From IMG/VR virus record IMGVR_UViG_2721755643_000007: DNA of 57,277 nucleotides. One strand, given 5' to 3'. Source of the stretch: a virus. Its lineage: Duplodnaviria > Heunggongvirae > Uroviricota > Caudoviricetes. Shown here in pieces: positions 17,494 through 48,097 of the stretch (the stretch's first letter is position 1; every line of letters begins with the position of its first letter). The notes beneath the pieces are model-generated. The model did no database searches, was not told the DNA's origin, and worked only from the letters and a program-made list of their open reading frames with translations. Position numbers and translations under genes: made by a program.

Positions 17494-18813
17494 TTACACT
17501 GGTGTGTTCAGCAAATCGTTAACGGCATCAGATGCCGGGTTACCTGCAGCCAGTGGTGCCGGTGCCCCCTGCATCAGACGATCCAGCGCAGTGTCACTGC
17601 GCGCCTGTGCACTCTGTGGTGCAGCTGCCAGAATGCGGCGGGCCGTTTCCACGGTCATACCGGGGGTTTCGGCCAGCACACGTGCCTGTTCTTCGCGTCC
17701 GTGAGCTTCCTCACAGTTGAGGATCCCCATAATGCGGCTGTTTTCTGCCGCAACCGCAGCGGTGATCTGCGCGTTCACGTCCGGCTGCGCCGCGCTGGCG
17801 TTTTCGCCCTCCGTCGCTTGCACCACGTCAGTAACGTCAGCCTGCGAAGCAGTGGCTGAAACAGTTGTTGATTGAGTCTCTTTGGTCATTCGCCCTCCTG
17901 AGAGACGGGATTTACGTGCATCCAGTGCATCACGCATAACGGTGATCGCATCGGTGCTGTTGACAAGTTCATCAGCCAGTCCGGCATCAATGGCCTCCTG
18001 ACCGCTGTACACTGCAGCCTCGGTATCCAGCACAGCCTGCACGGACAGGCCGGTATATGCCGACACCTTCTGCGCAAACATCCGGCGGGTTGCATCCATC
18101 CGGGACTGCAGTGTCTCCCGGACATCACCCGGTAGATGGCTGTAGGGGTTGCCATCCACCTTATGGCTGCCGCTGTAAATCAGCGTGATTTCCACGCCCT
18201 GTTTCTCCAGCGCAGCGCCGTAATTACTGTGAGCCATCATGACGCCGATGGAGCCTGTCCGGGCGGTCTGCGTGACCAGACGCCGGGAGGCGGCGCTGGC
18301 AAGCAGCTGACCTGCACTGCAGTTCATGTCGTTGGCCAGCGCCCATACCGGCTTTATGTCACGCACACGGGCGATGATGTCAGCACAGTCAAATGCTCCC
18401 GCCACCATCCCGCCCGGTGTGTCCATATCGAGCAGAATGCCGTCCACCATCGGATCGCTGGCAGCCTGTTGCAGACGAGCGATAATGCCGTTGTAACCGG
18501 TCATTCCCGAATACGGCTGCAGCGCCCGCGTCCGGCTGACCAGCGTACCGGACACCGGCAGCACGGCGATGCCGTTCATGACCTGATAACTGCGGGCCTG
18601 TCGTGGTCCGTCATCATCACCGGATAACGCCAGCGCCGCGGGTGCCTCTCCGGCAGTCAGGCTGTCGCCGGATACTGCATCCGTCAGGCGACTGATCCCA
18701 AGCTGGCCTGCAAGCGCACAAAAGAAAACCCGCGCATAGGCGGGTTCAAGCATCAGCGGCTCATTAAAAGCCATGCTGGCAATATGCGGGAGATTACGCA
18801 GCTCTGCTGTCAC
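17494..18813 (-). CDS. C: capsid protease/scaffold protein C (Nu3 nested in-frame)
   Basis: 439 aa lambda C-like from (V)TAELRNLPHIASMAF; GTG start preceded by AGGAGG; overlaps the end of B by 20 nt. Confidence 0.9.
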   Translation of the reverse strand: MTAELRNLPHIASMAFNEPLMLEPAYARVFFCALAGQLGISRLTDAVSGDSLTAGEAPAALALSGDDDGPRQARSYQVMNGIAVLPVSGTLVSRTRALQPYSGMTGYNGIIARLQQAASDPMVDGILLDMDTPGGMVAGAFDCADIIARVRDIKPVWALANDMNCSAGQLLASAASRRLVTQTARTGSIGVMMAHSNYGAALEKQGVEITLIYSGSHKVDGNPYSHLPGDVRETLQSRMDATRRMFAQKVSAYTGLSVQAVLDTEAAVYSGQEAIDAGLADELVNSTDAITVMRDALDARKSRLSGGRMTKETQSTTVSATASQADVTDVVQATEGENASAAQPDVNAQITAAVAAENSRIMGILNCEEAHGREEQARVLAETPGMTVETARRILAAAPQSAQARSDTALDRLMQGAPAPLAAGNPASDAVNDLLNTPV

Positions 18814-19567
18814 TCTTCTCCTCCTCTGTTGATTGTCGCAGTCCGGATTCAAATGCCGCAGCCGCCCAGGCGGGCGGTTTAAGACCGGCTGCACGGCGCT
18901 CCATCGTTTCACGGACCTGCTGGGCAAAAATTTCCTGATAGTCGTCACCGCGTTTCGCGCACTCTTTCTCGTAGGTGCTCAGTCCGGCTTCTATCAGCAT
19001 CACCGCTTCCTGAACTTCTTTCAGACCATCGATGGCCATACGACCGGAGCCTATCCAGTCGCAGTTCCCCCAGGCACTGCGGGCTTCCTGAAAGCTGAAG
19101 CGCGCTTTTGAAGGTAACGTCACCACGCGGCGAACGATGGCCTCTTCAAGCCAGCACAGAAACATCTGGCTCGCCTGACGGGATGCGACGAATTTTCGCC
19201 GCCCCATAAAGTACGCCCACGACTCGTTCGCACTGGCCCGTGCCGTGGAGTAGCTCATCTGGGCGTAATTCCGGGAAAGCTGCTCATACGAGACACCCAG
19301 CCCGGCAGCGATATACCGCAACAGTGACTGCTCAAACACGGAGTAGCCGTTATCCGTATCCTGAGCCGTCTGCAGGTTCAGTGAGTCCCCCGGCATCAGG
19401 TGCGGCACTTTTGCGCCTCCCAGACGGACCGGTGCTGCGGCGTAATACGCGGCAATTTCACCAATCCAGCCCGTCAGCCTTTCCCGCTGCTCCTGACTGT
19501 TCGCGCCCAGAATAAAATCCATCGCTGACTGCGTATCCAGCTCACTTTCAATGGTGGCGGCATACAT
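18794..19567 (-). pseudogene. B: portal protein B, C-terminal fragment (gene split by the island insertion)
   Basis: 257 aa MYAATIESELDTQSAMDFILGANSQEQ...EEEKSDSRAA matches the C-terminal part of lambda gpB; begins exactly at the insertion junction. Confidence 0.9.
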
Positions 19568-19645
19568 CGCCTTTATGAAAAGACAGGAAAAAATAAAATT
19601 TAAAAACAGTACATTACGAATGCTCAGACCTATCGTTTAAAGGAG

Positions 19646-19670
19646 TCGCAATACACACTGCAATACACGA
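19646..19670. repeat. direct repeats GCAATACAC(A) near the island left end, candidate integrase arm-type sites
   Basis: CGCAATACACA and CTGCAATACACGA in tandem; same motif occurs three times at the right end. Confidence 0.5.
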
Positions 19671-19702
19671 TTATTTATAAGATGAGCGGCATCCGTCATA
19701 AA

Positions 19703-19941
19703 GCTGGTGGATGCTTTTTCTATGCATATATGCACAGTTTTAGTGGGCGTTAATGTCGATATAGGGATCCCCATATCGAGATTGGATACCTGGCTTTTTT
19801 CCGGTTAACCTTTAATCAGGCTGGTGGGCTTTACCTGTTTTGTATGAGTGGTCATCATGACCATGTCATAACAAAAACCCCATATTCGTGGTTTTTCTGT
19901 GTCGGGCTATTCTGTCGTTGCTGTGCTGATTTGGCTGGTGG
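19703..19941 (+). other. cluster of three Chi sites (5'-GCTGGTGG-3') within 240 bp, same orientation
   Basis: Exact octamers at 19703-19710, 19820-19827 and 19934-19941 on the plus strand in non-coding DNA, interleaved with palindromes (TGCATATATGCA, TCGATATAGGGATCCCCATATCGA, TGGTCATCATGACCA). Confidence 0.7.
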
Positions 19942-20009
19942 GCTGAATCATCATTACGGCGATGCAGCTATGTAGACGTTCCGGCCTCCTCAAATTGAGG
20001 ATTGTGGAA

Positions 20010-20400
20010 GAATCAATGGGTTAGTCTTACTTTCCCGACATCCCCCAATGGGGGTTTTCGAAACAATCAATAGCTTAGGCTTACTTCCCCGATTTCCTGC
20101 ATTGCAGGTTTTCGAAATAATCAATGGGTTAGGCCATCGTGCAATTTTGCACTTTGCCAGCCAGCGCAATGTCGCGTTATCAGTCCTCAGATGTGAGGGA
20201 TGTAGCCAGCTTTTCCCCCAGTGGGGGATATCCAGCACCGACGGCTTAACTGTGCGTGCCAGCACAAGGTAGCCTTGAACTACTTACTGCATCCCATCTT
20301 ACAGGCCGTGCCTTCCTGCTTAACTTTTTGCAATGCAACAAGTCAGCCAGCGCAATTTTGCGTTATCGGGAATATCAGCAAGTTACCGCCGCAATCGTTC
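20010..20400. repeat. array of imperfect direct repeats each carrying a short GC-stem hairpin
   Basis: Recurring ATCAATGGGTTAG / ATCAATAGCTTAG and GTTTTCGAAA flanks around hairpins CCCCCAATGGGGG, CTGCATTGCAG, GTGCAATTTTGCAC, CCCCCAGTGGGGG; GCCAGCGCAAT(N)TTGCGTTATC present twice. Confidence 0.55.
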
Positions 20401-20664
20401 CGGCTTCTTCCACTGGTAAGTATTTTTCGCGCTCTCCCTCCGTTGTTGAGAACGGCGACGATATGCCAGCAACTCAAGGACTCTTGTTCGTATGTTGCGC
20501 ATATCCACGCCGTTAAGCTCAATACCGTCACGGCGCATCACCTCAGCCACTACACGCACATAATTATCTGCGGTCACGCTGTCCGGCTGCGTGGCCTGTT
20601 CGTCATGCTGCTTGCTGATTCCACAAGCACGGCGGATTAATCGCAGTATTTCGGATTCAGTCAT
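20383..20664 (-). CDS. hypothetical protein (93 aa) immediately downstream of the island small terminase
   Basis: ORF MTESEILRLIRRACGISKQHDEQ...; basic C-terminus; no family recognised. Confidence 0.5.
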   Translation of the reverse strand: MTESEILRLIRRACGISKQHDEQATQPDSVTADNYVRVVAEVMRRDGIELNGVDMRNIRTRVLELLAYRRRSQQRRESAKNTYQWKKPERLRR

Positions 20665-20675
20665 AGCGTACTACG

Positions 20676-21230
20676 TTACTTATCTTTATTCGGCTGCAAC
20701 TTATCCGGTACGTTTCCGGCAGTTTCCATCAGATAATCGGACAGCATCAGCGGTATGTTTTCGTCAAGTTTTGCGCATGCGTTACAGGCTCTGATAACTT
20801 CTTTTTTCAGTCCATCCAGCATAGACGGCTTCATGTCGGGAAACTTCCTTGTCATGGCAAGCGGCAGGCTGTCCATGATTGAAGAAATCTGACTCGCCAA
20901 TTTTGAAAGCACGTATATACAAAACGCTGTATCAATAACGTCGCCGCGTTCGCGCTCGTTTTTAAGCTCCTGCGCCTCTGCCTGTGCTGTCAGCAATCTG
21001 ATCCTGACTCGTAGGAGTTCATCATCATCAATCTCGCCTTTGTCGTCTGTAATCTGGTTAATTGCATTGCTAACCCGATTGTCTATTACGCTGGCAACAT
21101 CATAAAACGCCTCGCGGCCTTTACGTTCAACGGGAGTCACTCCCCACTTGTCGAACGCTGTCGCACTTACACGGCAGCTTTGCGCCATGTTTTTTTTGTT
21201 CATCAGGTGCGATTTCATCAATATCCCCAC
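20676..21230 (-). CDS. terminase small subunit paralog (lambda Nu1-like) encoded by the island
   Basis: C-terminal two thirds align to helper Nu1 (RLLTAQAEAQELKNERERGDVIDTAFCIYVLSKLASQISSIMDSLPL versus [47 protein letters not shown]); adjacent to the island cos; true start may be the internal MNKK. Confidence 0.8.
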   Translation of the reverse strand: MGILMKSHLMNKKNMAQSCRVSATAFDKWGVTPVERKGREAFYDVASVIDNRVSNAINQITDDKGEIDDDELLRVRIRLLTAQAEAQELKNERERGDVIDTAFCIYVLSKLASQISSIMDSLPLAMTRKFPDMKPSMLDGLKKEVIRACNACAKLDENIPLMLSDYLMETAGNVPDKLQPNKDK

Positions 21231-21329
21231 TTAAGTAATGTTTCAGGTTGGTGTATTGGCTTTATCTTTTCCTTTTTATTCATAGAGATAGAGCGAACAA
21301 CAAAACCACCACCAGCACCCGAAAAAGGC

Positions 21330-21394
21330 TCATAAATAGCGAAAACCCGCGAGGTCGCCGCCCCGTAGCCTACCGGATCGCCGGAAAGGACCCG
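21330..21394. other. island cos site: cosN and cosQ-side sequence shared with helper cos, cosB side divergent
   Basis: 65 bp block nearly identical to 34091-34154 (3 mismatches); contains AGGTCGCCGCCC at 21352-21363, the reverse complement of the lambda cohesive end GGGCGGCGACCT; flanks diverge toward the TerS gene. Confidence 0.8.
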
Positions 21395-21419
21395 CCAGCC
21401 AGAACGGGCCCTAATTTCA

Positions 21420-21803
21420 TCAACCAATCAACTTATAGCGACCATCCCGTGCATTGCGACGTACACGCTCAATCTTGAGGCATAGCGCCGCATCTGGCTT
21501 TTTTGGGACAGGTACGCGGCAATATTCAGAAGATCGAGGAATATTGTTTATCCAGTCGATCACTTCACTTAAATACCAGGCCTTACGCCCTTCCGTAACC
21601 TGTACGCGTTCGGGGAACTCTCCGCGAGCCTCAAGGTTTAGCAATGTGCGACGGCTAAGGGTAGTAAGTTCCATCACCTGATTCATATCAACAAGGCGTT
21701 CACTTAAACGCATTTTGTCAGCAATAGCCTTTAATTCCTCTACTGCTGGATCCGGATACATCATTTCGGCAATTGGCTTAAGGTCATTGTAATGATTCTG
21801 CAT
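21420..21803 (-). CDS. AlpA-family HTH DNA-binding protein (second copy in the island)
   Basis: 127 aa with MELTTLSRRTLLNLEARGEFPERVQVTEGRKAWYLSEVIDWINN resembling AlpA-type motifs. Confidence 0.6.
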   Translation of the reverse strand: MQNHYNDLKPIAEMMYPDPAVEELKAIADKMRLSERLVDMNQVMELTTLSRRTLLNLEARGEFPERVQVTEGRKAWYLSEVIDWINNIPRSSEYCRVPVPKKPDAALCLKIERVRRNARDGRYKLIG

Positions 21804-21814
21804 TGTATCCCCCT

Positions 21815-22156
21815 TTACACACGAGCCAGCGGCTGAACAGAAATACCTGAGCCAACAAACGCGGCAACCTTTGCCGACAGTTCTTTTACAGACTCAGGCC
21901 AGTTCAGAGCATCAACATTTAAAACACCTGTCTTATAAACCTGTGCCTGTGTTTTTTTCACTGTGTCGATTTGTACAGCGGAAACATAAACCGCTTTACC
22001 TACGCTCGAACCATCCCATACCACCAGTGCACCTGTTGCATCTTCCTGCATCAGTGGCGTAAATGCAGGAATTACCCCTTTATTAGCTGAAAATATCCCC
22101 AGCGTAGTCACCAGTGCTTCAGTGCCAGCCATGAGTTCAGTGTAATGAGTAGCCAT
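21815..22156 (-). CDS. capsid decoration protein paralog (gpD-like) encoded by the island
   Basis: 113 aa; shares spaced motifs with helper D (TPLM.D, LV.WDG, YK.G, WPE, AF.G..IS) at low identity. Confidence 0.7.
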   Translation of the reverse strand: MATHYTELMAGTEALVTTLGIFSANKGVIPAFTPLMQEDATGALVVWDGSSVGKAVYVSAVQIDTVKKTQAQVYKTGVLNVDALNWPESVKELSAKVAAFVGSGISVQPLARV

Positions 22157-22165
22157 TGCTCCCCC

Positions 22166-23212
22166 TTAGCCAATGCGAACGGTAACAAAACGATTGATGC
22201 GGGCCGGTATTGGCTGTGGTGCTGAATGTGTCTGCACATATTCAATAGCCGGATCACCAGGCACAATATAGTTTTTCGGTGCAAGTTCGGCTTTAGTCAG
22301 CCCCATTCGGATTAGCTCCGGATCCTGAATACCGCCATAGGCGACAATCCCCTGAAGAGCCGTATTGCCAAGCACCATCAAATCAGGATCAAGGAAATGT
22401 TTTTCTGTTCCGTCCTCGTCGGTATAACGCCCGCTGTAAACAACAATCGCAACATCGCCCATATACCCTTTAAAACTCACCGAATCACCAAGGTCTTTAA
22501 GGGCCGTTTCCAGTTCGGAATTAGAACCACGACGGGTATCCAAAGCCTCTTTTATCGCTCTGAATGAACGGTATTTCTTCCATACATTACCACCCATAAT
22601 GATGATATTAGTGACGCCCTCACTAAATTCTGCGTAGCTCTCAATATCATCATTTGGATCAAAAGTTTCTTTATCCTTACCTGACCACTCAGTACCGCCA
22701 GACTGAGTGATGATATTTTGTGGTTTTATATTCCAGTCCAGCTCATAACGTTCAATACCATCGCCCTCAATGATATTTTTCCCCGTTGTGATTGCCTGAA
22801 CAGCAAGCCATTCAATACGTGCACGAATAGCTTTAGCCTGATTTACAATCGCCTGTTTAACTTTAATATTACGCGCCCCAAAAGCATTGTATTGCTCAGG
22901 TGACACACCAGCAGGGCGCACAGCTAACTTATTTGGATCAATGCTGCTTTTCGGCTTCATATAACCTGGACGAATTGTTTTTGATTCGTATCCCTCATCT
23001 CGTGAAACTTTACTGCCCACCATAGGAGAGCAAAACGCCGCGATCGGGATATTTGGATCGTCGATCGTATCAAGAATAATGTCTCTCGATTCAAACATTA
23101 CCGAGCGAGTGAAAAACAAACTGGTAAACAACGCATTTAATTTTTTTTGCACATCTTCAGCATTAGCCACCTGCACAAGCTGTGTAGGCGAATATAAATC
23201 AACCATACTCAT
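22166..23212 (-). CDS. major capsid protein paralog (gpE-like) encoded by the island
   Basis: Start MSMVDLYS; shares ITQSGGTEWS, DTRRGS.SELETA.KDLG and AIVVYSG with helper gpE; rough by-eye identity 35-40%. Confidence 0.85.
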   Translation of the reverse strand: MSMVDLYSPTQLVQVANAEDVQKKLNALFTSLFFTRSVMFESRDIILDTIDDPNIPIAAFCSPMVGSKVSRDEGYESKTIRPGYMKPKSSIDPNKLAVRPAGVSPEQYNAFGARNIKVKQAIVNQAKAIRARIEWLAVQAITTGKNIIEGDGIERYELDWNIKPQNIITQSGGTEWSGKDKETFDPNDDIESYAEFSEGVTNIIIMGGNVWKKYRSFRAIKEALDTRRGSNSELETALKDLGDSVSFKGYMGDVAIVVYSGRYTDEDGTEKHFLDPDLMVLGNTALQGIVAYGGIQDPELIRMGLTKAELAPKNYIVPGDPAIEYVQTHSAPQPIPARINRFVTVRIG

Positions 23213-23423
23213 CCTCTTTACATTCATTACAAATAATTGTGAATATATTCTATTACCGATGTCTGCTATGCGAATACATGCAACCAAGTGCAATGTTGTA
23301 TAAAATATGCCGTAACAACTTCAGTGCTGATAATTCGTGTTAATGTATTTACTTCCTTTGGTCGGGATTTATGTAGCATGCCGGAAAATCTATTTTTTTC
23401 CGGCATCTTTTTGTTTGCAGAAT

Positions 23424-23846
23424 TTAAAACGGTATATTATCGCCGTACGGATCATCATTCCCCGACTGTTGTTTTGCCCTGTTCAGTGCGTCAGTGGCCT
23501 GCCCCTGCTGGCCTTTTTTGCCGCCCGGTCGCGCCGTTCGCGCACTGATTACGCTGTCTGCGATAACCTGCCAGCCCCGCCGCGTTTCGCCGTTCTGGCC
23601 TGTCCACTGGCTTACCTGCATGTTACCCGCCACGCTCACCAGTTCGCCTTTGTGGTGTTTTGCCAGTGCGTCGGCCTGTCTGCCAAACGCCAGGACGGAT
23701 AACCACATCGTCGCCGTTCCGTCATCTGCCTGGCTGCACGGCAGGGGAACCGCCATACTCGCCATCGCCATTTGTGTCCCTTTGCTGGTGGTCTTTAACT
23801 GCGGGTCAGCCACCAGCCGCCCGTAAGCCGCTATCTGTGCTGTCAT
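23424..23846 (-). CDS. single-stranded DNA-binding protein (SSB-like)
   Basis: 140 aa; OB-fold-like N-terminus, Gly/Gln-rich linker, acidic tail ending DDPYGDNIPF. Confidence 0.75.
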   Translation of the reverse strand: MTAQIAAYGRLVADPQLKTTSKGTQMAMASMAVPLPCSQADDGTATMWLSVLAFGRQADALAKHHKGELVSVAGNMQVSQWTGQNGETRRGWQVIADSVISARTARPGGKKGQQGQATDALNRAKQQSGNDDPYGDNIPF

Positions 23847-24157
23847 GCTGTCTGCTCTCCGGTTTTAACATTGATGGTTGTCACCTGTTCCGCTTCGGCA
23901 ATCTCCCGTTCTGTCAGCGTGGCAAAGTTTGCCGCTGCTGTGGTCATGAATGCGCTTATCAGGTCGGGATGTTCCTTCGCGTATCCTGCCCGTGTGTGGT
24001 GGTCTATCGCTTTGATTGCCACCTTTAAGGAAAGCTCTGTCATGTCTAACGCTTTATATTTTGCCTGTGTTCTGTCTCTGCGAATTTTGGTCATTTGTCG
24101 CCCCTGATTCATGTTTTCGGCTGGCATGTTTGTTAAGTGATTTTTATGTATGCGCAT
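23843..24157 (-). CDS. hypothetical protein (104 aa)
   Basis: ORF with stop/start overlap to SSB, downstream of the ori iterons. Confidence 0.45.
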   Translation of the reverse strand: MRIHKNHLTNMPAENMNQGRQMTKIRRDRTQAKYKALDMTELSLKVAIKAIDHHTRAGYAKEHPDLISAFMTTAAANFATLTEREIAEAEQVTTINVKTGEQTA

Positions 24158-24169
24158 TTATTTTCACCC

Positions 24170-24440
24170 CCCCTCGTTTAAAAAGTTTTTAGTTGTGCCT
24201 CCCCCCCTCTACCCATCTACCCGAATGCTCACCATGTCAGTAATGGCGCGGCTTTCAGCGGGTAGATAGCTTTTTGACTCCTCTACCTGCCGTCTACCCT
24301 GCTACCTGAAACTGATAAAATCAGGTAGAAGAGGTAGAGAGCTTTTATTAGCCTTCTACCTAGCCCTATACCCACTTATCATGTTGAATAATATGCGTTT
24401 ATTTTGTTCAGGTAGATGGGGTAGATGGCTTTTACAAAAA
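24170..24440. repeat. iteron array (GGTAGA / TCTACC motifs), candidate island replication origin
   Basis: Many copies in both orientations (CTCTACCCATCTACCC, GGGTAGATAG, CAGGTAGAAGAGGTAGAGAG, CAGGTAGATGGGGTAGATGG) immediately 3' of the primase-helicase gene. Confidence 0.65.
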
Positions 24441-24441
24441 A

Positions 24442-26196
24442 TTATAAAAACGCGTCGCAATCGTCTGTTGTAATTGCGTTGGTCTGCGTTACTCCCTTAA
24501 CTTTTCGCGTAATATATTCATGCCCGTAAACTTTCGCCGCTGGCTTCATGGCCTTGCTGAACTCAGCCACGTTTAGCGGTTTGCTCCTGCCCGCGTATGC
24601 CATAAACGCCAGATAGACGCGGTAAAGGCTGTTCCTGGTCGTGTACTTCACTGAATCACCACCGCCACCCATCATCAGGCCGCGCGCTTCCTCCAGAAAA
24701 TTCAGGAACTGGCAAAACTCAATAACCGGATCCGTCTGTTGCTTTATTGCCAGTGCTTCATCACCGTCACGCTGTTCCAGTAGTAAAGCCCGTGCCTTCT
24801 CAGGGTCGGTAAAGTTCGCCAGCAATCGGCGGATAATAACGGGGATTTCAGCCGCAATCTTTTCCGGTAGCTCCCTGTCTTTTTCGGCCTCACTGACGAT
24901 ATTGTCGAAACGGAAAATCACGCGACGACGTGCCACACCTCCGGCCCGTTCGGTGAATATCATCGGGTTGTTGTTGGTCGCCAGCACCACCGCCCTGATT
25001 ACCGCCGTGAAACGCTTTTCATATTTCGGGTTAATTTCCACGGGGTCGCCGCCTGTGATTTTCTTGATGCCCGTTCCTTCGCCTGTATATTTCGGCTGGT
25101 CAGCCAGGACGATAAGACGACTCCCGACAACCTGCGCACGTCCACCAGCATCATCAAGCGATGTCATTTCAGCGCTTACCGTGTTCTGTTTCCCTGCCAG
25201 AAGGCTGGCTATGTGTGTGAATGTACTTTTACCGCTCCCGCCGTCTCCGGTGGCCTCAATAAACATCTGCCAGTCGTACCGATTCGCCATAATCATGTAC
25301 AGCGCGGCACATATACGCATCATCTTGCGCGGGTCTTTTCCGGCTGCGTGCTCAAGCCATTTATGAAAGTTTGGCGCGTTATCGCGGATGTTCTCCCCTG
25401 GTGCTGGTGGCGTGTACTCAATGCCGTTGTGCGTGGTGATCCAGTTCTCCGGCGTGTGCGGGGAAAATTCCCCCGTTTTCAGGTCAAGCGCACCATTGGC
25501 GAACGGCAGCAAATCGCCAGACGGCTCGCCCATTGGTTCGGCAATAACTTTTAACGCTTCCACGGCGTTATTGATTACGCGCTTGCTGAAAGTGGCCCTG
25601 TGCTCTGAATAGATCGCCACCATTTCGCGGCTAAGTTCCATTGTGCTGACCGGACACCATACCCCGCCGCGCCATACGTGAACGATTTCACTTTCAGGAT
25701 GTACGCAAACGCCATCAAAGCGATCGGCAAGCAACTGCGCGCGCTCACTGTCCGCCATCTGCGAAAGTTGCGCCTTTTGCTTTACCGGAAGCTCAATGAC
25801 CAGACCATCAGAAAGATTCTGGCGTTCACGGGCCAGATATTCGCGCCAGTTCTGCACCTCCTGGCCGTGCATACCCTCAGGATAAAAATTTGCATCCTGT
25901 ACGCCTGCTGCCGCCAGCTTCTGACCAATCGCCTTTATCATTACAGGCGCAAGATATCCGGCCCTGTATATGCGTGCTGATTTTCGGCCTTCCGGCACAA
26001 TTTGCAGATTATCCAGTTCGGATAGCTGCTGCTCCCCAAGCCACACAGGAGGCTCATTATCTCCGGCCATACGCGCATCATGTTCCTGCCATTGTTTCGC
26101 GTGTGCCCAGGCATCACTACCCGCAAAAATAATGACTTCTGTTCCTTTGTGTTTTATGCCGCGTGACTGCTGTTTTACGTTCGGTGCCAGTTTCAT
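24442..26196 (-). CDS. primase-helicase (D5 / P4 alpha-like NTPase with Walker A)
   Basis: 584 aa; Walker A GDGGSGKST; size and domain order typical of satellite and plasmid primase-helicases. Confidence 0.8.
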   Translation of the reverse strand: MKLAPNVKQQSRGIKHKGTEVIIFAGSDAWAHAKQWQEHDARMAGDNEPPVWLGEQQLSELDNLQIVPEGRKSARIYRAGYLAPVMIKAIGQKLAAAGVQDANFYPEGMHGQEVQNWREYLARERQNLSDGLVIELPVKQKAQLSQMADSERAQLLADRFDGVCVHPESEIVHVWRGGVWCPVSTMELSREMVAIYSEHRATFSKRVINNAVEALKVIAEPMGEPSGDLLPFANGALDLKTGEFSPHTPENWITTHNGIEYTPPAPGENIRDNAPNFHKWLEHAAGKDPRKMMRICAALYMIMANRYDWQMFIEATGDGGSGKSTFTHIASLLAGKQNTVSAEMTSLDDAGGRAQVVGSRLIVLADQPKYTGEGTGIKKITGGDPVEINPKYEKRFTAVIRAVVLATNNNPMIFTERAGGVARRRVIFRFDNIVSEAEKDRELPEKIAAEIPVIIRRLLANFTDPEKARALLLEQRDGDEALAIKQQTDPVIEFCQFLNFLEEARGLMMGGGGDSVKYTTRNSLYRVYLAFMAYAGRSKPLNVAEFSKAMKPAAKVYGHEYITRKVKGVTQTNAITTDDCDAFL

Positions 26197-26492
26197 TTTT
26201 TACCTCTGAATCCGTTAATCATGGTTTTCATTTTCTGGATATTTCCCCACGCTTTTTCCCTGCTGATGGGCTTACTGCGGGGTGCGGCATATACCAGGGA
26301 AAAATCACGCCGGAACTGATAAACAGGCATCACGCAGTCATAGCTATACCCCTCACGGCGGTAAGTGATGCGCCGTTCTGCCACGCCTTTAATCGTTACC
26401 GTGCCGCCGTATTTATCGCGGTAAATATCGCCGTTCATAAATTCAGGTCGAGCGGGGCCGCTGGCAATAAAGCCAGAATTTTTCATTTCCAT
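26193..26492 (-). CDS. hypothetical protein (99 aa)
   Basis: ORF overlapping the primase start by 4 nt (operon-like). Confidence 0.45.
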   Translation of the reverse strand: MEMKNSGFIASGPARPEFMNGDIYRDKYGGTVTIKGVAERRITYRREGYSYDCVMPVYQFRRDFSLVYAAPRSKPISREKAWGNIQKMKTMINGFRGKK

Positions 26493-26509
26493 ATTATTTA
26501 TTCCTCGAC

Positions 26510-26731
26510 TTAACTCGACTTATTTGATAGCAGGGCACTATTTATTGCGTCATTGAGTTTTTCTGCTGATTCATCAATAAGTGACAACAGGCCATAAGCA
26601 ATATTTGCATCTTCATTGTCATTTATGCAATCAAGCCACATATTTAATATTGCTTTTGCTGAATTATTTAAAGTTAATGAACTTTCTGCACATGCTAACA
26701 ATTTAAAAAAGACTTCCCGTTCTGTATTCAT
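26510..26731 (-). CDS. hypothetical protein (73 aa)
   Basis: Small ORF in a tightly packed co-oriented cluster. Confidence 0.4.
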   Translation of the reverse strand: MNTEREVFFKLLACAESSLTLNNSAKAILNMWLDCINDNEDANIAYGLLSLIDESAEKLNDAINSALLSNKSS

Positions 26732-26923
26732 TTAATCCCCCACCAGCTTACTTTCTTCCTCAATCAAAAAACTAGCGACACTTCCCGAAAGACGCGCCAG
26801 TAGGCTCGCCAGTGCGGATATATCAGCATCTGTAATTTTGTTCGGGTATACCTCAAGAAGGCGGCAAATAATTTCTGTCTGGTGCGCACGTTCAGCGGCT
26901 TCGTGTAATGTAATTTCCTGCAT
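26732..26923 (-). CDS. hypothetical protein (63 aa)
   Basis: Small ORF, abutting its neighbours. Confidence 0.4.
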   Translation of the reverse strand: MQEITLHEAAERAHQTEIICRLLEVYPNKITDADISALASLLARLSGSVASFLIEEESKLVGD

Positions 26924-27108
26924 TAATGCACCTCTTTTAATTCATACACTGCTGAAATAATGACTTGTGATAAGCCATATTCTGATGATTCGCTTCTCAC
27001 CGCAGCAATAGCCGTCTGAACATTAACAGCCTTCACATTCTGAGCGATACCAATTGTGTGGCCTATTGGGTTAACAGCTCGGGCAAATACACGGAAGGTT
27101 TTAAGCAT
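26923..27108 (-). CDS. hypothetical protein (61 aa)
   Basis: First gene of the leftward small-ORF operon, facing the divergent control region. Confidence 0.4.
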   Translation of the reverse strand: MLKTFRVFARAVNPIGHTIGIAQNVKAVNVQTAIAAVRSESSEYGLSQVIISAVYELKEVH

Positions 27109-27389
27109 GACTCACTCCCTGGCGGATTTTTGCAGCGAATACAGCAACACAACCGGACGGGCAACGGCTACGCGCTTCGCGTTCCGTCCAGGCGGTTACG
27201 TGGATGATTTGAGATTCTCCGGCACTCAGTGCCAGAAAACGCCACACAAAGGCCGTTTGTGTGTGTACAAGGTGTGGTATATGATTTACAGCAACCATAA
27301 CGGCTCCTAGTTTACGTTGTTGGTTAGACGCCCCGTATGTGTTCCCAGCACTGCGGGGCGTTGCTCTTTGTATTTCAACAATCCTTTCG

Positions 27390-27468
27390 GTGTGTTTCAT
27401 GTTATGAGCGCATGAAACACACGTCAAGGCTTTTTGTATTTCTTTTTTTGTGTATACTGAAACACACC
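27390..27468. promoter_or_regulatory. candidate operator/promoter: 12-bp perfect inverted repeat plus an extra half-site overlapping a -10-like TATACT
   Basis: GTGTGTTTCATG-(9 nt)-CATGAAACACAC at 27390-27422; half-site TGAAACACACC at 27458-27468; TATACT at 27453-27458; AGGAG before the ATG at 27489. Confidence 0.5.
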
Positions 27469-27488
27469 GATGATTAGGAGTTTCAGAA

Positions 27489-27794
27489 ATGGCAACGGCT
27501 AACAAAAACGCAAAATCACAACTGACAACTGTCAGAGTCCCACTAGATGTTATGCAAGGGATGGAATCCGTTAAGCTGGACGGTGAAAGCAATGCCGGAT
27601 TTATCGTAACCGCCATGCGCGGAGAAATAGCCCGCCGCCAAGCAGAAGGCAGCGGAGAAAATCCCCTTGTGTCGTCACTGGATGCCCTGGCTAAGGTCGA
27701 ACAAATCGGCATCAAAGCAGCCGAGGAGATCGGGCAACTCGTCACCGTCGCGCGTGAAGAACTCCAGCGACGCAAGGTCAAAGAGCATGAATAG
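27489..27794 (+). CDS. putative ribbon-helix-helix DNA-binding regulator (candidate island repressor)
   Basis: 101 aa; N-terminal TTVRVPLDVMQGMESV fits the RHH beta-strand/helix pattern; transcribed opposite to the replication operon. Confidence 0.5.
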   Translation: MATANKNAKSQLTTVRVPLDVMQGMESVKLDGESNAGFIVTAMRGEIARRQAEGSGENPLVSSLDALAKVEQIGIKAAEEIGQLVTVAREELQRRKVKEHE

Positions 27795-27851
27795 CCAATA
27801 TCAGCGCCATAGTTTGAGGAACGCAGGCGCATTGCTTTACAGGACAGCACC

Positions 27852-28031
27852 ATGAGCGACACAGAATCAACCAAAACACCATCACCAACTCGTAAGAGAC
27901 GACGCAAAAATATAGCGCATGAACATGAATCAGAAAGATTCGCACCTTGTTCGTTTGCTCTTGAGAAATTCCTTAAAGAGCACAGGAAAAAGCTCTCGTT
28001 GCAAACCTTGGAACGAACCAAATCTGACTGA
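27852..28031 (+). CDS. small hypothetical protein (59 aa)
   Basis: ORF MSDTESTKTPSPTRKRRRKNIAHEHE... co-oriented with the RHH gene; below the ORF-track length cutoff. Confidence 0.3.
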   Translation: MSDTESTKTPSPTRKRRRKNIAHEHESERFAPCSFALEKFLKEHRKKLSLQTLERTKSD

Positions 28032-28127
28032 TCACATTGCCCACCAGCCGCAAATGTGGCATTGTTGGTGATGCTTTTGTTTTCCCTTGTTTCCACTGGC
28101 GACCCTTTTGCGGTCGCCTTTGTTTTG

Positions 28128-28706
28128 TCACTGAATGCGGTTACCAAAGTAAAACTCAGGCTGATATTCACGTATCAGCGTTTTTTCTTCTTCCTCCAGC
28201 TCACGCTTTTTGCGCTTACATGCCTGTAGCTCCCTCCCCTTCTCGCTGGCACTTATTTGATATTGCTCTTTACGGCGGGAAAAATCCTGTAATGCACCCC
28301 ACGGGATACCATAAGTCCCCGTTTTTCTGATACCTGGTATCACATTTCTGAATACCCAGTTACTGAAACGATGAGCAAATGTGCCAGGCGTCGTTGCTTT
28401 GCGGCTGCGGGCTATTAGTTTGTAGAAACCTGACTCAGAGATAATTCTCATATTCTGATTTCCTCCTGGGGTGTAAGTTAAATTTACTCCCTTTTCATCA
28501 TCATCAAGCATCTGCAACGCCGTACGCGAATTGGTTAGTTCCAGCGCAGCACAAACATCTTTTGCAACAAACCACGGATCGCCGTTCAGATACACCACAC
28601 GAACGTTCACACTATCAAAGCGCAGAACGACGAGATCACGAATATCGCAGAATTTTTTCACTGGACGAGCGTACCCCTTGCCCGTCACGGCAATATTTTT
28701 ATTCAT
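28128..28706 (-). CDS. Bro-N domain protein (antirepressor-like)
   Basis: 192 aa; N-terminal FDSVNVRVVYLNGDPWFVAKDVCAALEL typical of Bro-N. Confidence 0.75.
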   Translation of the reverse strand: MNKNIAVTGKGYARPVKKFCDIRDLVVLRFDSVNVRVVYLNGDPWFVAKDVCAALELTNSRTALQMLDDDEKGVNLTYTPGGNQNMRIISESGFYKLIARSRKATTPGTFAHRFSNWVFRNVIPGIRKTGTYGIPWGALQDFSRRKEQYQISASEKGRELQACKRKKRELEEEEKTLIREYQPEFYFGNRIQ

Positions 28707-28762
28707 CGCGTTTTTACCTTATAGACAAAAAACCCCTCGTGATGAGGGGCATTATTTACTGG

Positions 28763-29020
28763 TTATTGCTGTTTTGTTTTTCCAGGTTTCCATCCAGGAT
28801 GCCACTCACCACGGATCCATGCCTGAACCTCTGAAAGTCGATACCCTGCAGCACGTTCACCGATCTTGATACGTCGCGGGAATTTACCTGCCTGCTCCAT
28901 TTTCCAGCGTGTTGAGTTTGCCAGCGTGGTAAGTGCTATGCACTCTTTTTCACGAATGAACCGATCAATGTCCTTCATTGTGCGCAAATCGTTTTCATCA
29001 ACAAGAGAATAAATTGTCAT
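28763..29020 (-). CDS. AlpA-family transcriptional regulator / excisionase-like protein
   Basis: 85 aa; CIALTTLANSTRWKMEQAGKFPRRIKIGERAAGYRLSEVQAWI matches the AlpA pattern; immediately downstream of int. Confidence 0.8.
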   Translation of the reverse strand: MTIYSLVDENDLRTMKDIDRFIREKECIALTTLANSTRWKMEQAGKFPRRIKIGERAAGYRLSEVQAWIRGEWHPGWKPGKTKQQ

Positions 29021-29021
29021 A

Positions 29022-30263
29022 TCACACCACCTCTTTATTAAGCTCGATAACGTTGTTGTTAAATCCTGCTATCGTATTAAGGTAATTAACCCACATATTA
29101 AGCACCTCAAGTTTTTTCTTTATATGCCTGCTTTTATTGTAAACACCAGCAACCCCTTTCACTTTATGACCTAAAAGAAGTTCGACAATATAAGGATCCG
29201 CCCCCATATCATTAAGCGTAGTGGAAAATGTGCGCCTGAAATCATGTATGCACCACAAGCCATTAGTATCATGACCAAGACGCCTGCATATTCTGTTTGC
29301 AGCCCCTGTTATTGTCGCCCTTTGCAAAGCACAACCGACAACATAACCGCGATTTTTTGTTTCTGCGTAAAGATTAACGATCCATTGTTTTATTCCGTCA
29401 GGAACAGGCCTTACTATAGCCTCCTTGTTTTTGCTGTGCTCTTTTGGGACTGTCCATACCCAGTTTTTTAAATCCCATTCGTCCCAGGTGGATAGCCTCG
29501 CCTCCTGCTGTCGGCAACCAAACACCAGGCAGATAACCATTATTCTTCGGTTATATATTGATGACAGAGTTAGCAAATTATTACCGTAAGCATAAGACCA
29601 TACATCAGCGGTTTCATTGATATTAAGAACGCGATCCCTTATACCGGATGAGCGCCCGACATAACTTACGTTAATATCTCCAAAGGGATCGCACGCGATG
29701 TATTGCCTGACGCGACAAAAACGCAACGCCTGTTTGATATCAAGAAAAATTGCACCAGACATAACAGGCGCATTTTTTTTGATCCTGTCAAAGACGGTAA
29801 GCCATGTGTGTAATTTGCACTGTTCTATAGCCATATCACCGATATAGGGGAAGATATGCTTTTCAAATCGTTTTATTAAATATTCATGCTCTTTTCTGGC
29901 TGTTGTGGCGTGATTGTCGTACCAGTAAAACAGCGCATCCCTTACGGTCACTGGTTGCATAGTTTTTTCGGCAGCAAGTTTTATTTGCCTGCGGGGGTCC
30001 AGATTTTCAGCCAGCCATTCACGGCACTGATCACGCATGCGCCTGGCCGTTGCAAGAGACATGTCAGGATAGCGACCAAGTGTAAGCCATACCGGAGGGG
30101 ATTCCCTGCCACCAAGACGATAGTAAAAAACAAAGCTGATCCCCCCAACCATGCTTACACGCACAGACAACCCGCGCCCATCCGCTATTGTTTTTTGTTT
30201 GTCCTGCCGTTTTCCGACAAGACTCTTTAACAGTTTGTCACTGAGTTTGTTTTCAATAGCCAT
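29022..30263 (-). CDS. tyrosine integrase (P4-type, with N-terminal arm-binding domain)
   Basis: 413 aa; N-terminal DGRGLSVRV / YRLGG / LGRYPDMSLATAR motifs; C-terminal HDFRRTF ... LLGH ... VYNKS. Confidence 0.9.
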   Translation of the reverse strand: MAIENKLSDKLLKSLVGKRQDKQKTIADGRGLSVRVSMVGGISFVFYYRLGGRESPPVWLTLGRYPDMSLATARRMRDQCREWLAENLDPRRQIKLAAEKTMQPVTVRDALFYWYDNHATTARKEHEYLIKRFEKHIFPYIGDMAIEQCKLHTWLTVFDRIKKNAPVMSGAIFLDIKQALRFCRVRQYIACDPFGDINVSYVGRSSGIRDRVLNINETADVWSYAYGNNLLTLSSIYNRRIMVICLVFGCRQQEARLSTWDEWDLKNWVWTVPKEHSKNKEAIVRPVPDGIKQWIVNLYAETKNRGYVVGCALQRATITGAANRICRRLGHDTNGLWCIHDFRRTFSTTLNDMGADPYIVELLLGHKVKGVAGVYNKSRHIKKKLEVLNMWVNYLNTIAGFNNNVIELNKEVV

Positions 30264-30281
30264 TAAAAGCCCTCAAGAGAT

Positions 30282-30335
30282 TTGCAATACACACCCATCC
30301 CGATCGCCAATTTGCAATACACATTGCAATACACA
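30282..30335. repeat. three direct copies of TTGCAATACACA between int and the right junction, candidate arm-type sites
   Basis: Copies at 30282-30293, 30312-30323 and 30324-30335; same motif as at 19646-19670. Confidence 0.5.
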
Positions 30336-30411
30336 AAACCGCGAAAAACTGGAAGGGTGATGAACGGTCATCAAAAGCATGGAAAACGACATTCCAGACG
30401 CAGCAAGGGTT

Positions 30412-33392
<2,981 letters not shown>

Positions 33393-46383: not shown

Positions 46384-47085
46384 TCATACACTTGCTCCTT
46401 TCAGTCCGAACTTAGCTTTAATTTCTGCGATCTTCGCCAGAGCCTGTGCACGATTTAGAGGTCTACCGCCCATAACAGGAAGTTGTTTTACTGGTTCAGG
46501 TATCGTCTCACCACGGTTAATTCGCGCTGTCATACAGGTCAGTTCATCGGCAGCCTTGCGCCGTAATTCCGCGTCAGTCAGCGCATTGGCCCGCATGTTC
46601 TGGTACAAGTTGGTAACCAACCAGTAATGCGCGTTCGATTTCCACGGATAAGACTCTGCATCCGGATACAGGCCACGCTTCCGGCAATACTCGTAAACCA
46701 TATCAACCAGCTCGCTGACGTTTGGCAGCCCGGCGTTAACAGATGCTTCTTCCCGGCACCAGGCGACAAACTGCCCGGGTGATGGCAGGAATGGTCGATT
46801 CTGCCGACGGGCTACGCGCATTCCAGCGTTAACCTGTTCCATTGTGGTGATCCCGTTTTCCCGGAAAGCCAGAACCCACTGGCGGCGGATTTCGTTCAGT
46901 TCATTCTGGTCACGGTTAGCCAGGCTCGCCGGGAAAGTTGCCAGTAACTGGCTGAACACACCGTTGATGATCTGCGCTACCTGCTGTACCTGTGGCTTTT
47001 CGTCGTACTGTTCCGGCATGTTGTTGGCGATCCGGCGCATCTGCTCACAGTCAAAGTTAACCATCTGTGCGGCGATGTTTTTCAT
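46384..47085 (-). CDS. P: replication protein P (DnaB helicase loader)
   Basis: 233 aa MKNIAAQMVNFDCEQMRRIANNMPEQYDEKPQ matches lambda P. Confidence 0.95.
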   Translation of the reverse strand: MKNIAAQMVNFDCEQMRRIANNMPEQYDEKPQVQQVAQIINGVFSQLLATFPASLANRDQNELNEIRRQWVLAFRENGITTMEQVNAGMRVARRQNRPFLPSPGQFVAWCREEASVNAGLPNVSELVDMVYEYCRKRGLYPDAESYPWKSNAHYWLVTNLYQNMRANALTDAELRRKAADELTCMTARINRGETIPEPVKQLPVMGGRPLNRAQALAKIAEIKAKFGLKGASV

Positions 47086-48011: not shown

Positions 48012-48097
48012 AATTCCTCCCGCAATGAGTGTGTTACGATTTGCACCTGAAAGTCGGTTCTGTTCCAGCAGACCGGCTTTCGCCATTTCTGAACCTG

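Follow-up and report, generated by a model that had tools for sequence, protein, structure and literature searches.

The window analysed here, a stretch of 57,277 bp, contains an E. coli phage-satellite island of 10.9 kb in which all genes except one are on the minus strand. The island encodes an integrase (int), AlpA, BRO-N, an Icd-like protein, DUF4222, Rep, SSB, capsid-E and decoration homologues, a second AlpA-like protein and a Nu1-like small terminase (TerS). In its size of about 10 kb, the presence of int and alpA, its unidirectional transcription and the lack of tail and lysis genes, it has the composition of a PICI (phage-inducible chromosomal island). It interrupts the portal gene of the host prophage, and a search of a limited literature collection found no paper on PICI insertion into a portal gene. 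The replication module is centred on the rep ('pri-rep') gene (24442..26196, minus strand), an ORF for a helicase-initiator of 584 aa. Directly upstream is a DUF4222 gene (26193..26492, minus strand; PF13973), a possible accessory of the module, which overlaps the start of rep by 4 bp (ATGA). The same gene is found directly upstream of rep in the window, in CFT073 and in 8 of 9 other loci, whatever the helicase class. On the other side, 284 bp of intergenic DNA (24158..24441), assigned here as the origin of replication, separate the rep stop codon from a small conserved ORF (23843..24157, minus strand; phrog_1231). It is followed by the SSB gene of the island (23424..23846, minus strand; Pfam SSB, TIGR00621), whose product has a C-terminal D-x-IPF tip that is kept in every island SSB examined (9 loci).

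An earlier note on this DNA had described a 584-aa NTPase with the Walker A motif GDGGSGKST. The motif was located at residues 317-325 of Rep (nt 25222-25248, with K323) in the minus-strand ORF 24442-26196. The domain organization of Rep was then resolved by Pfam and PDB matches. A D5_N domain spans aa 153-282 (25351..25740, minus strand; PF08706, E 1.1e-15). It is followed by the SF3 ATPase core at aa 291-480 (24757..25326, minus strand), which was matched by Pfam DUF5906 and by the structure of SaPI5 PriRep (7OLA, E 3.7e-15). The ATPase motifs LIVLADQ, VVLATNNNP and ARRRV start at residues 361, 403 and 422, respectively. The C-terminal region, aa 487-576 (24469..24738, minus strand), corresponds to a winged-helix origin-binding domain and is the putative iteron reader; the origin-binding domain of P4 alpha (1KA8) matched residues 488-576 with an E value of 8.2e-6, and Pox_D5 matched exactly at the Pfam cut-off. 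The score of TIGR01613 ('primase_Cterm') was also at its cut-off. Rep showed 40% identity over 434 aa to residues 324-756 of P4 alpha, and Walker A, Walker B, motif C and the Arg finger are conserved between the two proteins. These matches support the label 'helicase-initiator' for Rep as read from its sequence.

The N-terminal part of Rep gave a different picture. The cassette of aa 1-140 (25777..26196, minus strand) has at best a Toprim-like fold, apparently without the Toprim acidic residues. No Zn-ribbon, Toprim or AEP domain was detected in Rep by Pfam. A homologue search returned only near-identical E. coli sequences of no use for diversity, and a diverse N-terminal set was obtained from a search of 50% representatives with the N-terminal 160 aa. 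Among the resulting 17 N-terminal sequences (Rep and 16 homologues), no primase or Toprim family was found by Pfam at E values up to 10. In the same Pfam test P4 alpha scored 1.9e-18 for Zn_Ribbon_Prim (residues 30-66) and 1.2e-12 for Toprim_3 (residues 210-299), both located before the part that aligns with Rep, which begins at residue 324. Residues 1-150 of Rep contain no cysteine. The comparison of the N-terminal family with the Toprim region of P4 alpha by hhalign gave a probability of 0.1, a weak test because the template was a single sequence, and Foldseek of the N-terminal domain against the PDB returned no significant match. The signal for a Toprim-like fold in these 140 aa is weak. 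In a hand alignment to the P4 alpha segments IAEGYATA and LAADRD, the Toprim Glu and DxD are absent from the family and their positions are occupied by invariant A25-G26 and A79-G80; the register of this alignment was set by eye, with the hhalign-aligned segment GDWNDAF/QNWREYL as its sole support. Across the family E20 is invariant and D46 nearly so, and these two residues could form an unconventional active site. Overall, the cassette looks like a Toprim-like domain whose catalytic site has degenerated.

Both NCBI and PHROGs call Rep a 'DNA primase'. For annotators it is relevant that the widespread names 'DNA primase family protein' and 'pri-rep' derive from the helicase part of the protein (TIGR01613 'primase_Cterm'), and that no primase catalytic domain is detectable. 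The label 'primase' is not supported by the sequence of Rep. Accordingly, the term 'primase-helicase' of the earlier note stood in its second half, with D5_N, DUF5906, Pox_D5, 7OLA and 1KA8 all pointing to the helicase, and failed in its first; the domain search which that note had proposed returned the D5_N and helicase domains and no primase domain.

The intergenic region 3' of rep is marked by a dense cluster of GGTAGA repeats. The window has 14 exact GGTAGA sites, and the shuffle mean was 14.4, showing no overall excess above chance. Ten of the 14 fall within the 218 bp of the iteron core (24208-24425); under a Poisson model with the site density found elsewhere in the window, 10 or more sites in 218 bp have a probability of about 2e-25, uncorrected for about 263 such windows. 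The ten copies are divided equally between the strands, with GGTAGA on the plus strand at 24261, 24324, 24333, 24411 and 24420, and TCTACC at 24208, 24216, 24282, 24293 and 24355. Two more copies have one mismatch, at 24301-24306 (GCTACC) and 24367-24372 (TATACC). Every exact copy of the cluster extends to the 7-mer [A/G]GGTAGA, which is absent from the rest of the window. The earlier description of dense repeats in both orientations within 300 bp of the NTPase gene is correct, because, read in the direction of the gene, the first copy begins 17 bp and the last 229 bp past the rep stop codon, with the end of the last at 234.

The arrangement of the repeats follows the PICI origin as described, which lies directly 3' of rep with short iterons in two sets around an AT-rich region (PMC6092414). 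The rep-proximal pair (24411..24425; copies at 24411-24416 and 24420-24425) is located at +17 and +26 after the stop codon, positions that are occupied in 4 of 4 GGTAGA-type origins. It is followed by an AT-rich spacer of about 38 bp (24373..24410, about 70-73% A+T), which is the putative DNA-unwinding element, and then by the distal group (24208..24372) with eight exact copies (24208, 24216, 24261, 24282, 24293, 24324, 24333 and 24355) and the two degenerate ones, up to +234. An AT-rich gap after the first iteron group was present in every related origin that was read. The AT richness of 24373-24410 is modest. When the origins were compared, 93% of the iteron columns were invariant versus 37% for the rest of the origin (Fisher p 1e-15), a pattern consistent with selection acting on the repeats. 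The origin also contains a conserved non-iteron block, AAGCCGCGCCATTACTG (24238..24254, minus strand), which occurs once in the window. Its core, CCGCGCCATTACTG, is invariant in 4 of 4 GGTAGA-type origins; the window, CFT073 and L005 share the complete 17-mer unaltered, one change is present in L006 (AACCCGCG...), and a C-to-T variant is found in the TGTTCAC-type L007. Rfam gave no match over the whole island at E values up to 1.

The position of the repeats also invites another explanation, in which they are operators through which Rep or another island DNA-binding protein regulates transcription from rep towards the ssb and capsid genes, with no role as an origin. The rep gene and the ORF after it, with the repeats in between, belong to one unidirectional operon that has no terminator there, and a conserved block located after the repeats ends in the Shine-Dalgarno sequence of that ORF. 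Iteron-binding plasmid initiators often regulate their own synthesis. A scan of 23800-24600 found no sigma-70 promoter-like or terminator-like site, so nothing indicates that the repeats also serve as a sigma-70 promoter or that rep is followed by a terminator of its own. Iteron groups around an AT-rich gap are also found behind helicases of three unrelated classes, an arrangement more in keeping with an origin than with an operator, and the equivalent region of EcCICFT073 is needed in cis for plasmid maintenance (PMC6092414). An exclusively regulatory function is therefore given very little credence, and a regulatory role may exist alongside origin function.

The origin reading draws on comparison with EcCICFT073, whose pri-ori segment allowed the plasmid pKO3-blue to be kept at 44 C in E. 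coli (Fillol-Salom 2018, ISME J, PMC6092414). In that study, the delta-pri plasmid gave zero colonies, and the delta-ori plasmid gave significantly fewer colonies, a reduction rather than an abolition; deletion of pri-rep lowered island transfer about 100-fold (PMC6092414). Rep of the window is identical to EcCICFT073 Pri-Rep (AAN79964) at 571 of 584 positions (98%), both proteins being 584 aa long and differing by 13 substitutions. The iterons of the two islands share order, orientation and stop-codon offsets, and in both an AT-rich gap follows the first pair. Ten copies are exact and two degenerate in the window, against 11 exact ones in EcCICFT073, and the origins are 79% identical with diverged spacers. 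The layout is superimposable on those of CFT073, L005 and L006, the four origins having 10-11 GGTAGA copies at matching offsets and orientations. The flanking genes are also alike, with DUF4222 upstream and a small ORF and SSB downstream. The rest of the island differs, as PerC is absent from the window, and the Nu1-like TerS and the second AlpA-like gene are absent from EcCICFT073. The integration sites differ as well, EcCICFT073 being situated next to roxA and phoQ and the window island inside the prophage portal gene. The claim of the earlier note that this is an island replication module with an iteron origin was thus borne out by the 98% identity and the matching layout with a tested pri-rep-ori. 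By its sequence, the view of the module as a Gram-negative PICI replicon of the EcCICFT073 type, a type already known, is largely right. The module is real but ordinary, since replication has already been demonstrated for a module with 98% identity to it.

Integration into the portal gene of a prophage, together with the degeneration of 2 of the 12 iterons, could mean that the module has lost the ability to replicate and persists as a relic in a defective prophage. Against this, rep is full length with every ATPase motif intact, and the count and layout of the iterons equal those of the functional CFT073 origin. The segment is present at 99% identity or more in 50 genomes, and at least 80% of rep in 560. 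The integrase, the arm-type sites and the flanking 13-bp repeats are also intact. Loss of function is hence considered very improbable. The island carries an intact copy of the replicon type already demonstrated for E. coli PICIs.

To relate the iterons to the proteins encoded beside them, iteron types were compared across 11 islands (the window, CFT073 and nine other loci), which represent few independent lineages. Four types were distinguished: GGTAGA, TGTTCACC (the P4 iteron), TAACCCGCA and AGTGGGGA. GGTAGA accompanies Rep C-termini that are at least 85% identical. TGTTCACC accompanies C-termini which are only 32-41% identical to that of the window, yet 40-49% identical to P4 alpha. Islands with a DUF927 helicase have TAACCCGCA and those with a RepA/AAA_25 helicase have AGTGGGGA. 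L007 has an ATPase core 73% identical to that of the window with a divergent C-terminus and another iteron, and L009 has an N-terminus 88% identical with a different iteron. The iteron type therefore covaries with the Rep C-terminus or the helicase class, independently of the neighbouring genes. The small ORF, SSB and DUF4222 were considered as iteron readers and rejected, their sequence classes being independent of the iteron class; the small ORF is 72-85% identical across iteron classes where it was found (no match in L007) and is therefore not the specificity determinant. From this covariation the C-terminal domain of Rep is predicted to read GGTAGA, and iteron specificity in these satellites appears to be modular, set by the C-terminal winged helix or by the helicase class.

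The same covariation bears on the proposal that the cluster serves DNA packaging, the small terminase binding its repeats as cosB- or pac-like sites. The island does encode a Nu1-like TerS, and terminase-binding sites are typically short repeats, as in lambda cosB. The cluster is about 3 kb away from terS, and it is a distinct repeat array (19987-20132) that adjoins this gene. The repeat sequence follows the Rep C-terminus or helicase class even in islands without this TerS, such as CFT073, and the homologous region acts as an origin in a plasmid assay free of phage (PMC6092414). Next to no weight is left for a packaging function.

The arrangement had also been likened to both PICI and P4-type replicons. 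The PICI layout was recovered, and the P4 analogy is only partial. Rep and P4 alpha have in common D5_N, the SF3 helicase and the C-terminal winged-helix origin-binding domain, and both genes have short iterons in both orientations immediately 3' of them. In place of the zinc ribbon and Toprim primase of P4 alpha (residues 1-323), Rep has the 140-aa domain, which is unrelated in sequence. The iteron is GGTAGA in the window and TGTTCACC (type 1) in P4. The repeats of P4, as given in its annotated record, comprise crr, just 3' of alpha, and ori, about 4.5 kb away, while the window island has a single cluster. A second cluster equivalent to the P4 pair of ori and crr was searched for in the window and not found; elsewhere, one-mismatch sites are enriched only at TTTACC/GGTAAA palindromes of the lambda-type ori of the prophage and, by chance, at about 54.7 kb, and neither enrichment is related. 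The 40% identity over 434 residues, the common origin-binding domain, the 'DNA primase' name in NCBI and PHROGs and the crr repeats just 3' of alpha could be taken to mean that the module belongs to the P4 alpha family proper, combining a working primase-helicase with an origin split into ori and crr. Rep lacks Zn_Ribbon_Prim and Toprim_3, however, and its alignment begins only at alpha residue 324; moreover, the island and the window have one cluster of a different iteron in the gene context of a PICI, with int, alpA, capsid and decoration homologues and a Nu1-like TerS. This reading is already contradicted on domain and iteron criteria, and scarcely any probability is assigned to it.

The logic of the module is also that of SaPIs (SaPI1, SaPI5), in which 6-12 short iterons lie directly 3' of the ORF with opposite directions on the two sides (PMC9371898). 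The winged-helix C-terminal domain of SaPI Reps binds these iterons just 3' of rep, the centre is AT-rich and the helicase loads itself (PMC9371898). The window has the same combination of an initiator-helicase with a C-terminal DNA-reading domain, iterons directly 3', an AT-rich centre and opposite iteron directions. The SF3 ATPase core of SaPI5 PriRep (7OLA) is homologous to that of Rep, the similarity being distant and confined to residues 190-432. The iteron sequences of SaPIs are unrelated to GGTAGA. In SaPIs, priming is the task of a separate primase or of a primase domain fused to the N-terminus, of which Rep shows no recognisable counterpart.

Taken together, the module is very probably a PICI replicon of the EcCICFT073 type in which Rep acts at an iteron origin. 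Upon induction and excision of the island, the 584-aa Rep would be made, and its C-terminal winged helix would bind the approximately 12 GGTAGA iterons that start 17 bp past its own stop codon and form oppositely oriented groups on either side of the AT-rich segment 24373-24410. On the model of P4 alpha and the SaPI Reps, we infer that Rep loads itself at this site and forms a hexameric SF3 helicase, which would then melt the AT-rich segment, the presumed site of opening, and unwind the DNA in the 3'->5' direction, and the single strands would be coated by the SSB of the island. Priming probably comes from the host, through DnaG or a transcript, because Rep has no recognisable primase motifs of the kind of the P4 zinc ribbon and Toprim. 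In this case the element should, after excision, multiply autonomously and then be packaged by a lambdoid helper. What is understood of PICI biology in general is unchanged by this result.

The N-terminal 140 aa may be given a more speculative reading as a mobile adaptor cassette, a catalytically dead Toprim-like domain which is neither a primase nor the relic of one. Such a cassette would travel with the upstream DUF4222 gene, be fused to three unrelated helicase classes (D5/SF3, DUF927 and RepA/AAA_25) in enterobacterial satellites and couple the helicase to a common partner. This proposal is tentative, and we hold it to be rather less than an even chance. The partner could be host DnaG or SSB, in the service of priming; alternatively, it could be a signal from the helper phage or the island by which initiation is licensed. 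A search of a limited literature collection found no papers on Toprim or DUF4222 in proteins of the Pri-Rep type. If the adaptor proposal is true, the 'Pri-Rep' proteins of Gram-negative PICIs would be initiators without a primase. A further observation concerns the iterons of other E. coli PICIs, since the P4 iteron was found in L007, L008 and L010-L012. Because some PICIs share the exact iteron of P4, questions arise of origin cross-talk or incompatibility between satellites residing in the same cell.

The rep gene occupies 24442..26196 on the minus strand and encodes a protein of 584 aa (Rep) with the Walker A sequence GDGGSGKST at residues 317-325. Between its stop codon and the minus-strand ORF that comes next (23843-24157) lie 284 bp of intergenic DNA (24158-24441). 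GGTAGA occurs 14 times on the two strands of the 57,277 bp, as predicted overall from shuffled sequence (mean 14.4), and ten of these sites fall within 24208-24425, five in each orientation. With the site density outside this cluster as reference, the probability of at least ten sites in 218 bp is about 2e-25. All ten clustered copies read [A/G]GGTAGA, a 7-mer absent from the rest of the window, and two more copies with one mismatch are found at 24301 and 24367. The earlier note had placed and described the gene and its repeats correctly.

Rep showed matches to D5_N (residues 153-282, E 1e-15), to DUF5906, the P-loop core of D5/SF3 helicases (316-417, E 5e-10), and to Pox_D5 (487-575, score at the cut-off) in Pfam. 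Among PDB entries, SaPI5 PriRep (7OLA) matched residues 190-432 (E 3.7e-15) and the origin-binding winged helix of the phage P4 initiator alpha (1KA8) matched residues 488-576 (E 8e-6). Rep residues 141-573 are 40% identical to residues 324-756 of P4 alpha, and Walker A, Walker B (LIVLADQ), motif C (VVLATNNNP) and the arginine finger region are conserved in this alignment. The domain matches and conserved motifs give good support to the helicase and initiator functions claimed for the protein. By analogy, the module would work like the replicons of P4 alpha and the SaPI Reps. Three hallmarks of P4 itself were not found in it: recognisable primase domains, iterons of the TGTTCACC type and an origin split into ori and crr.

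The closest characterised relative is EcCICFT073, the prototype phage-inducible chromosomal island (PICI), which was located in the CFT073 genome with its Pri-Rep (AAN79964) four genes before the capsid gene c1499/AAN79968. This Pri-Rep is also 584 aa long and identical to Rep at 571 of 584 positions (98%), while the 288 bp after pri-rep are 79% identical to the intergenic region of the window. When rep and the putative ori of EcCICFT073 were cloned into thermosensitive pKO3-blue, DH5alpha carrying the plasmid formed colonies at 44 C; none appeared with the rep mutant, and significantly fewer with the ori deletion (PMC6092414). Deletion of pri-rep also lowered transfer of the island about 100-fold (PMC6092414). 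As the EcCICFT073 module replicates in the plasmid test, the module in the window, judged by its 98% identity, is an allele of an experimentally characterised replicon. It belongs to the EcCICFT073-type PICI replicon family and shows every feature of it that can be examined in silico. The module is common: among 5,426 complete E. coli genomes, 560 carry 80% or more of the rep gene and 50 have the 2.4-kb segment at 99% identity or more. As an allele of a characterised replicon common in E. coli, the reported module is real, rightly located and essentially rightly interpreted, and it is already known. Only the apparent absence of a primase domain, the N-terminal cassette found with three helicase classes and the clean co-variation of iteron with Rep C-terminus, which extends to PICIs having the P4 iteron, are mildly new.

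The four GGTAGA-type origins (window, CFT073 and the related E. coli islands L005 and L006), compared in gene orientation, share one layout. Counted from the rep stop codon, an iteron pair of the same direction at +17 and +26 is followed by an AT-rich gap spanning roughly 38 bp (A+T 70-73%; 24373-24410 in the window). Beyond the gap, the orientation switches for one or two iterons in the range of about +70 to +82, and then come two or three around +94 to +114, two near +145 and +156 and a single one near +177. Two more iterons lie at about +222 and +232, followed by a conserved block ending in the Shine-Dalgarno of the next ORF. Between the +177 iteron and this last pair is a conserved non-iteron block, CTGAAAGCCGCGCCATTACTG / AAGCCGCGCCATTACTG (24238-24254, minus strand). 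All four origins have the core CCGCGCCATTACTG unaltered, and the full 17-mer is exact in three and differs once in L006; a variant with C changed to T is present in one TGTTCAC-type origin, that of island L007. When the four GGTAGA-type origins were aligned with MAFFT, 93% of iteron columns were invariant versus 37% of the others (Fisher p 1e-15), which indicates that selection is acting on the hexamers themselves. The layout also matches that of SaPI origins, where iterons lie directly 3' of rep and flank an AT-rich centre, facing opposite ways on its two sides (PMC9371898). No sigma-70-like promoter or intrinsic terminator was predicted in 23800-24600, and no Rfam family matched anywhere in the island.

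Nine further islands (L005-L013) were also examined in the stretch from the rep stop codon up to the gene that follows. Each has a short repeat there, in 7-12 copies and in both orientations, and the first group of copies is followed by an AT-rich gap. GGTAGA is found in the window, CFT073, L005 and L006, with D5/SF3 Reps whose C-termini are at least 85% identical to that of the window. TGTTCAC(C) is found in L007, L008, L010, L011 and L012, with D5/SF3 Reps whose C-termini are 32-41% identical to the window and 40-49% to P4 alpha. L009 carries TAACCCGCA with a DUF927 helicase and L013 carries AGTGGGGA with a RepA/AAA_25 helicase, neither having a domain homologous to the window C-terminus. 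Recombinant islands separate the parts further: L007 combines an ATPase core 73% identical and a divergent C-terminus with the P4-type iteron; L006 an N-terminus 44% and a C-terminus 83% identical with GGTAGA; and L009 an N-terminus 88% identical with another helicase and another iteron. The neighbouring genes are independent of iteron class. The window SSB is 97-99% identical to those of TGTTCACC-type islands and only 69% to that of CFT073; the small ORF, present in nine loci that represent all four iteron classes and without a match in L007, shows 72-85% identity; and DUF4222 is about 72% identical across islands of three classes. These three proteins were therefore ruled out as iteron readers. 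As the iteron follows the Rep C-terminus and not the neighbouring genes, the Rep C-terminal winged helix is its most probable reader, in line with P4 alpha and the SaPI Reps. The 'ori type 1 repeat' annotated in phage P4 is exactly TGTTCACC, so some E. coli PICI origins (L007:1835-2191, L008:1394-1680, L010:1608-2098, L011 and L012:1761-2047) are built from the same type-1 iteron as P4 ori/crr. The Rep C-termini of these islands are also nearer to that of P4 alpha than to that of the window, hinting that cross-recognition between P4-like and PICI satellites may be possible.

The earlier note had called the protein a primase-helicase, and the first half of this name was not supported: the domain search recovered D5_N and helicase domains, and neither the Zn-ribbon nor the Toprim of a primase. 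In P4 alpha the primase consists of Zn_Ribbon_Prim (30-66) and Toprim_3 (210-299), both upstream of the stretch aligning with Rep. Rep residues 1-140 matched no Pfam family, nor did 16 diverse homologues of this domain at E up to 10, and the first 150 residues contain no cysteine. Rep owes its NCBI name, 'DNA primase family protein', to TIGR01613 'primase_Cterm', whose match covers residues 229-495, the helicase part. The N-terminal family is small, since only 79 relatives of residues 1-160 were found among 1.84 billion representative proteins. An AlphaFold model built from 17 relatives (pLDDT 87, confident) gave a four-strand beta-alpha domain at residues 20-130 followed by a disordered linker. 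Hand alignment placed IAEGYATA and LAADRD of P4 alpha against IIFAGSDAW and IYRAGY of the window family, and GDWNDAF against QNWREYL, the only segment aligned by hhalign, agrees with this register. Judged by eye in the hand register, invariant Ala-Gly pairs occupy the positions of the Toprim Glu and DxD. We read this tentatively as a possible Toprim-like domain in which the canonical residues for metal binding have been lost; at the level of sequence, a primase catalytic domain appears to be absent.

Searching the rep gene by blastn against the 5,426 complete genomes revealed that its first 422 nt also occur, along with the DUF4222 gene upstream, in fusions with other genes annotated as DUF927 or 'helicase RepA family'. 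DUF4222 and the first 140 rep codons (25777-26492 in the window; L009:1790-4218; L013:2455-4151) behave as a single cassette with D5/SF3, DUF927 or RepA/AAA_25 helicases as partners. The nucleotide breakpoint at about codon 141 coincides with the start of P4 alpha homology and with the onset of disorder in the AF2 model. This N-terminal domain therefore appears as a cassette common to three helicase classes.

If it acts as P4 alpha and the SaPI Reps do, Rep would bind the iterons through its C-terminal domain, assemble as a self-loading SF3 hexamer, melt the AT-rich segment and then unwind 3'->5'. The single strands exposed by unwinding would be covered by the island SSB. E. coli SSB recruits replisome partners through its D-x-IPF tip, and this tip is kept in all nine island SSBs examined. 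With no recognisable primase active site in Rep, the simplest assumption is that the host supplies the primers. Plasmid maintenance in DH5alpha needed no more than the pri-rep-ori segment (PMC6092414), compatible with host priming or with an unconventional primase.

The window is Escherichia coli DNA, identical (100%) to strain VL46 over 24100-26500. The island spans 10.9 kb (19574-30458) and contains, in order, integrase, AlpA-type regulator, BRO-N, YlcI/YnfO, Icd-like, three small ORFs, DUF4222, rep, the repeat region, a small ORF, SSB, homologues of the lambda-E-type capsid and lambda-D-type decoration proteins, a second AlpA-like gene and a Nu1-like small terminase. Gram-negative PICIs have the same gene order (Fillol-Salom et al. 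2018, PMC6092414). The insertion point is inside the portal gene of the lambdoid prophage around the island; the two halves of this gene (18794-19567 and 30412-31293) are annotated as pseudogenes, and the match to uninterrupted portal genes ends at 19573 and restarts at 30459. As a 13-bp imperfect direct repeat, CATA[C/A]ATCGCCTT, flanks the island (19561-19573 and 30459-30471), precise excision would restore the portal ORF. Both junctions are present in 58-63 of the 5,426 genomes and the uninterrupted portal sequence in about 3,180; no paper on a PICI inserted in a portal gene was found in the literature collection searched.

Copies of (T)TGCAATACAC(A) lie at both island ends (19644-19670 and 30280-30335), two at the left and three beside int, and are probably arm-type integrase binding sites. 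At the end near the Nu1-like terminase gene, three 38-nt repeats with 54-bp spacing (19987-20132) each begin with a different self-complementary 6+6 palindrome (TCCTCAAATTGAGGA, CCCCCAATGGGGG, CCTGCATTGCAGG) and finish in a conserved ATCAATGGGTTAG-like tail. They gave no Rfam match and could represent a packaging/terminase-binding site or structured elements. For the island terminase small subunit (20676-21230, minus strand), the match to the Nu1 profile of 164 positions is limited to positions 80-162. Its Nu1 N-terminal DNA-binding part is not recognisable in this comparison, so the DNA specificity of the protein may differ. PICI packaging-redirection proteins have been reported with different DNA specificity. 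The prophage has its own replicon in the window, unrelated to the GGTAGA one, with a lambda O homologue (Phage_rep_O, 47082-48101, minus strand) and a P homologue (46384-47085, minus strand). Five palindromic TTACCTGATTCGGGTAA-like lambda-type iterons (47548-47662) lie inside its O gene, as in ori-lambda.
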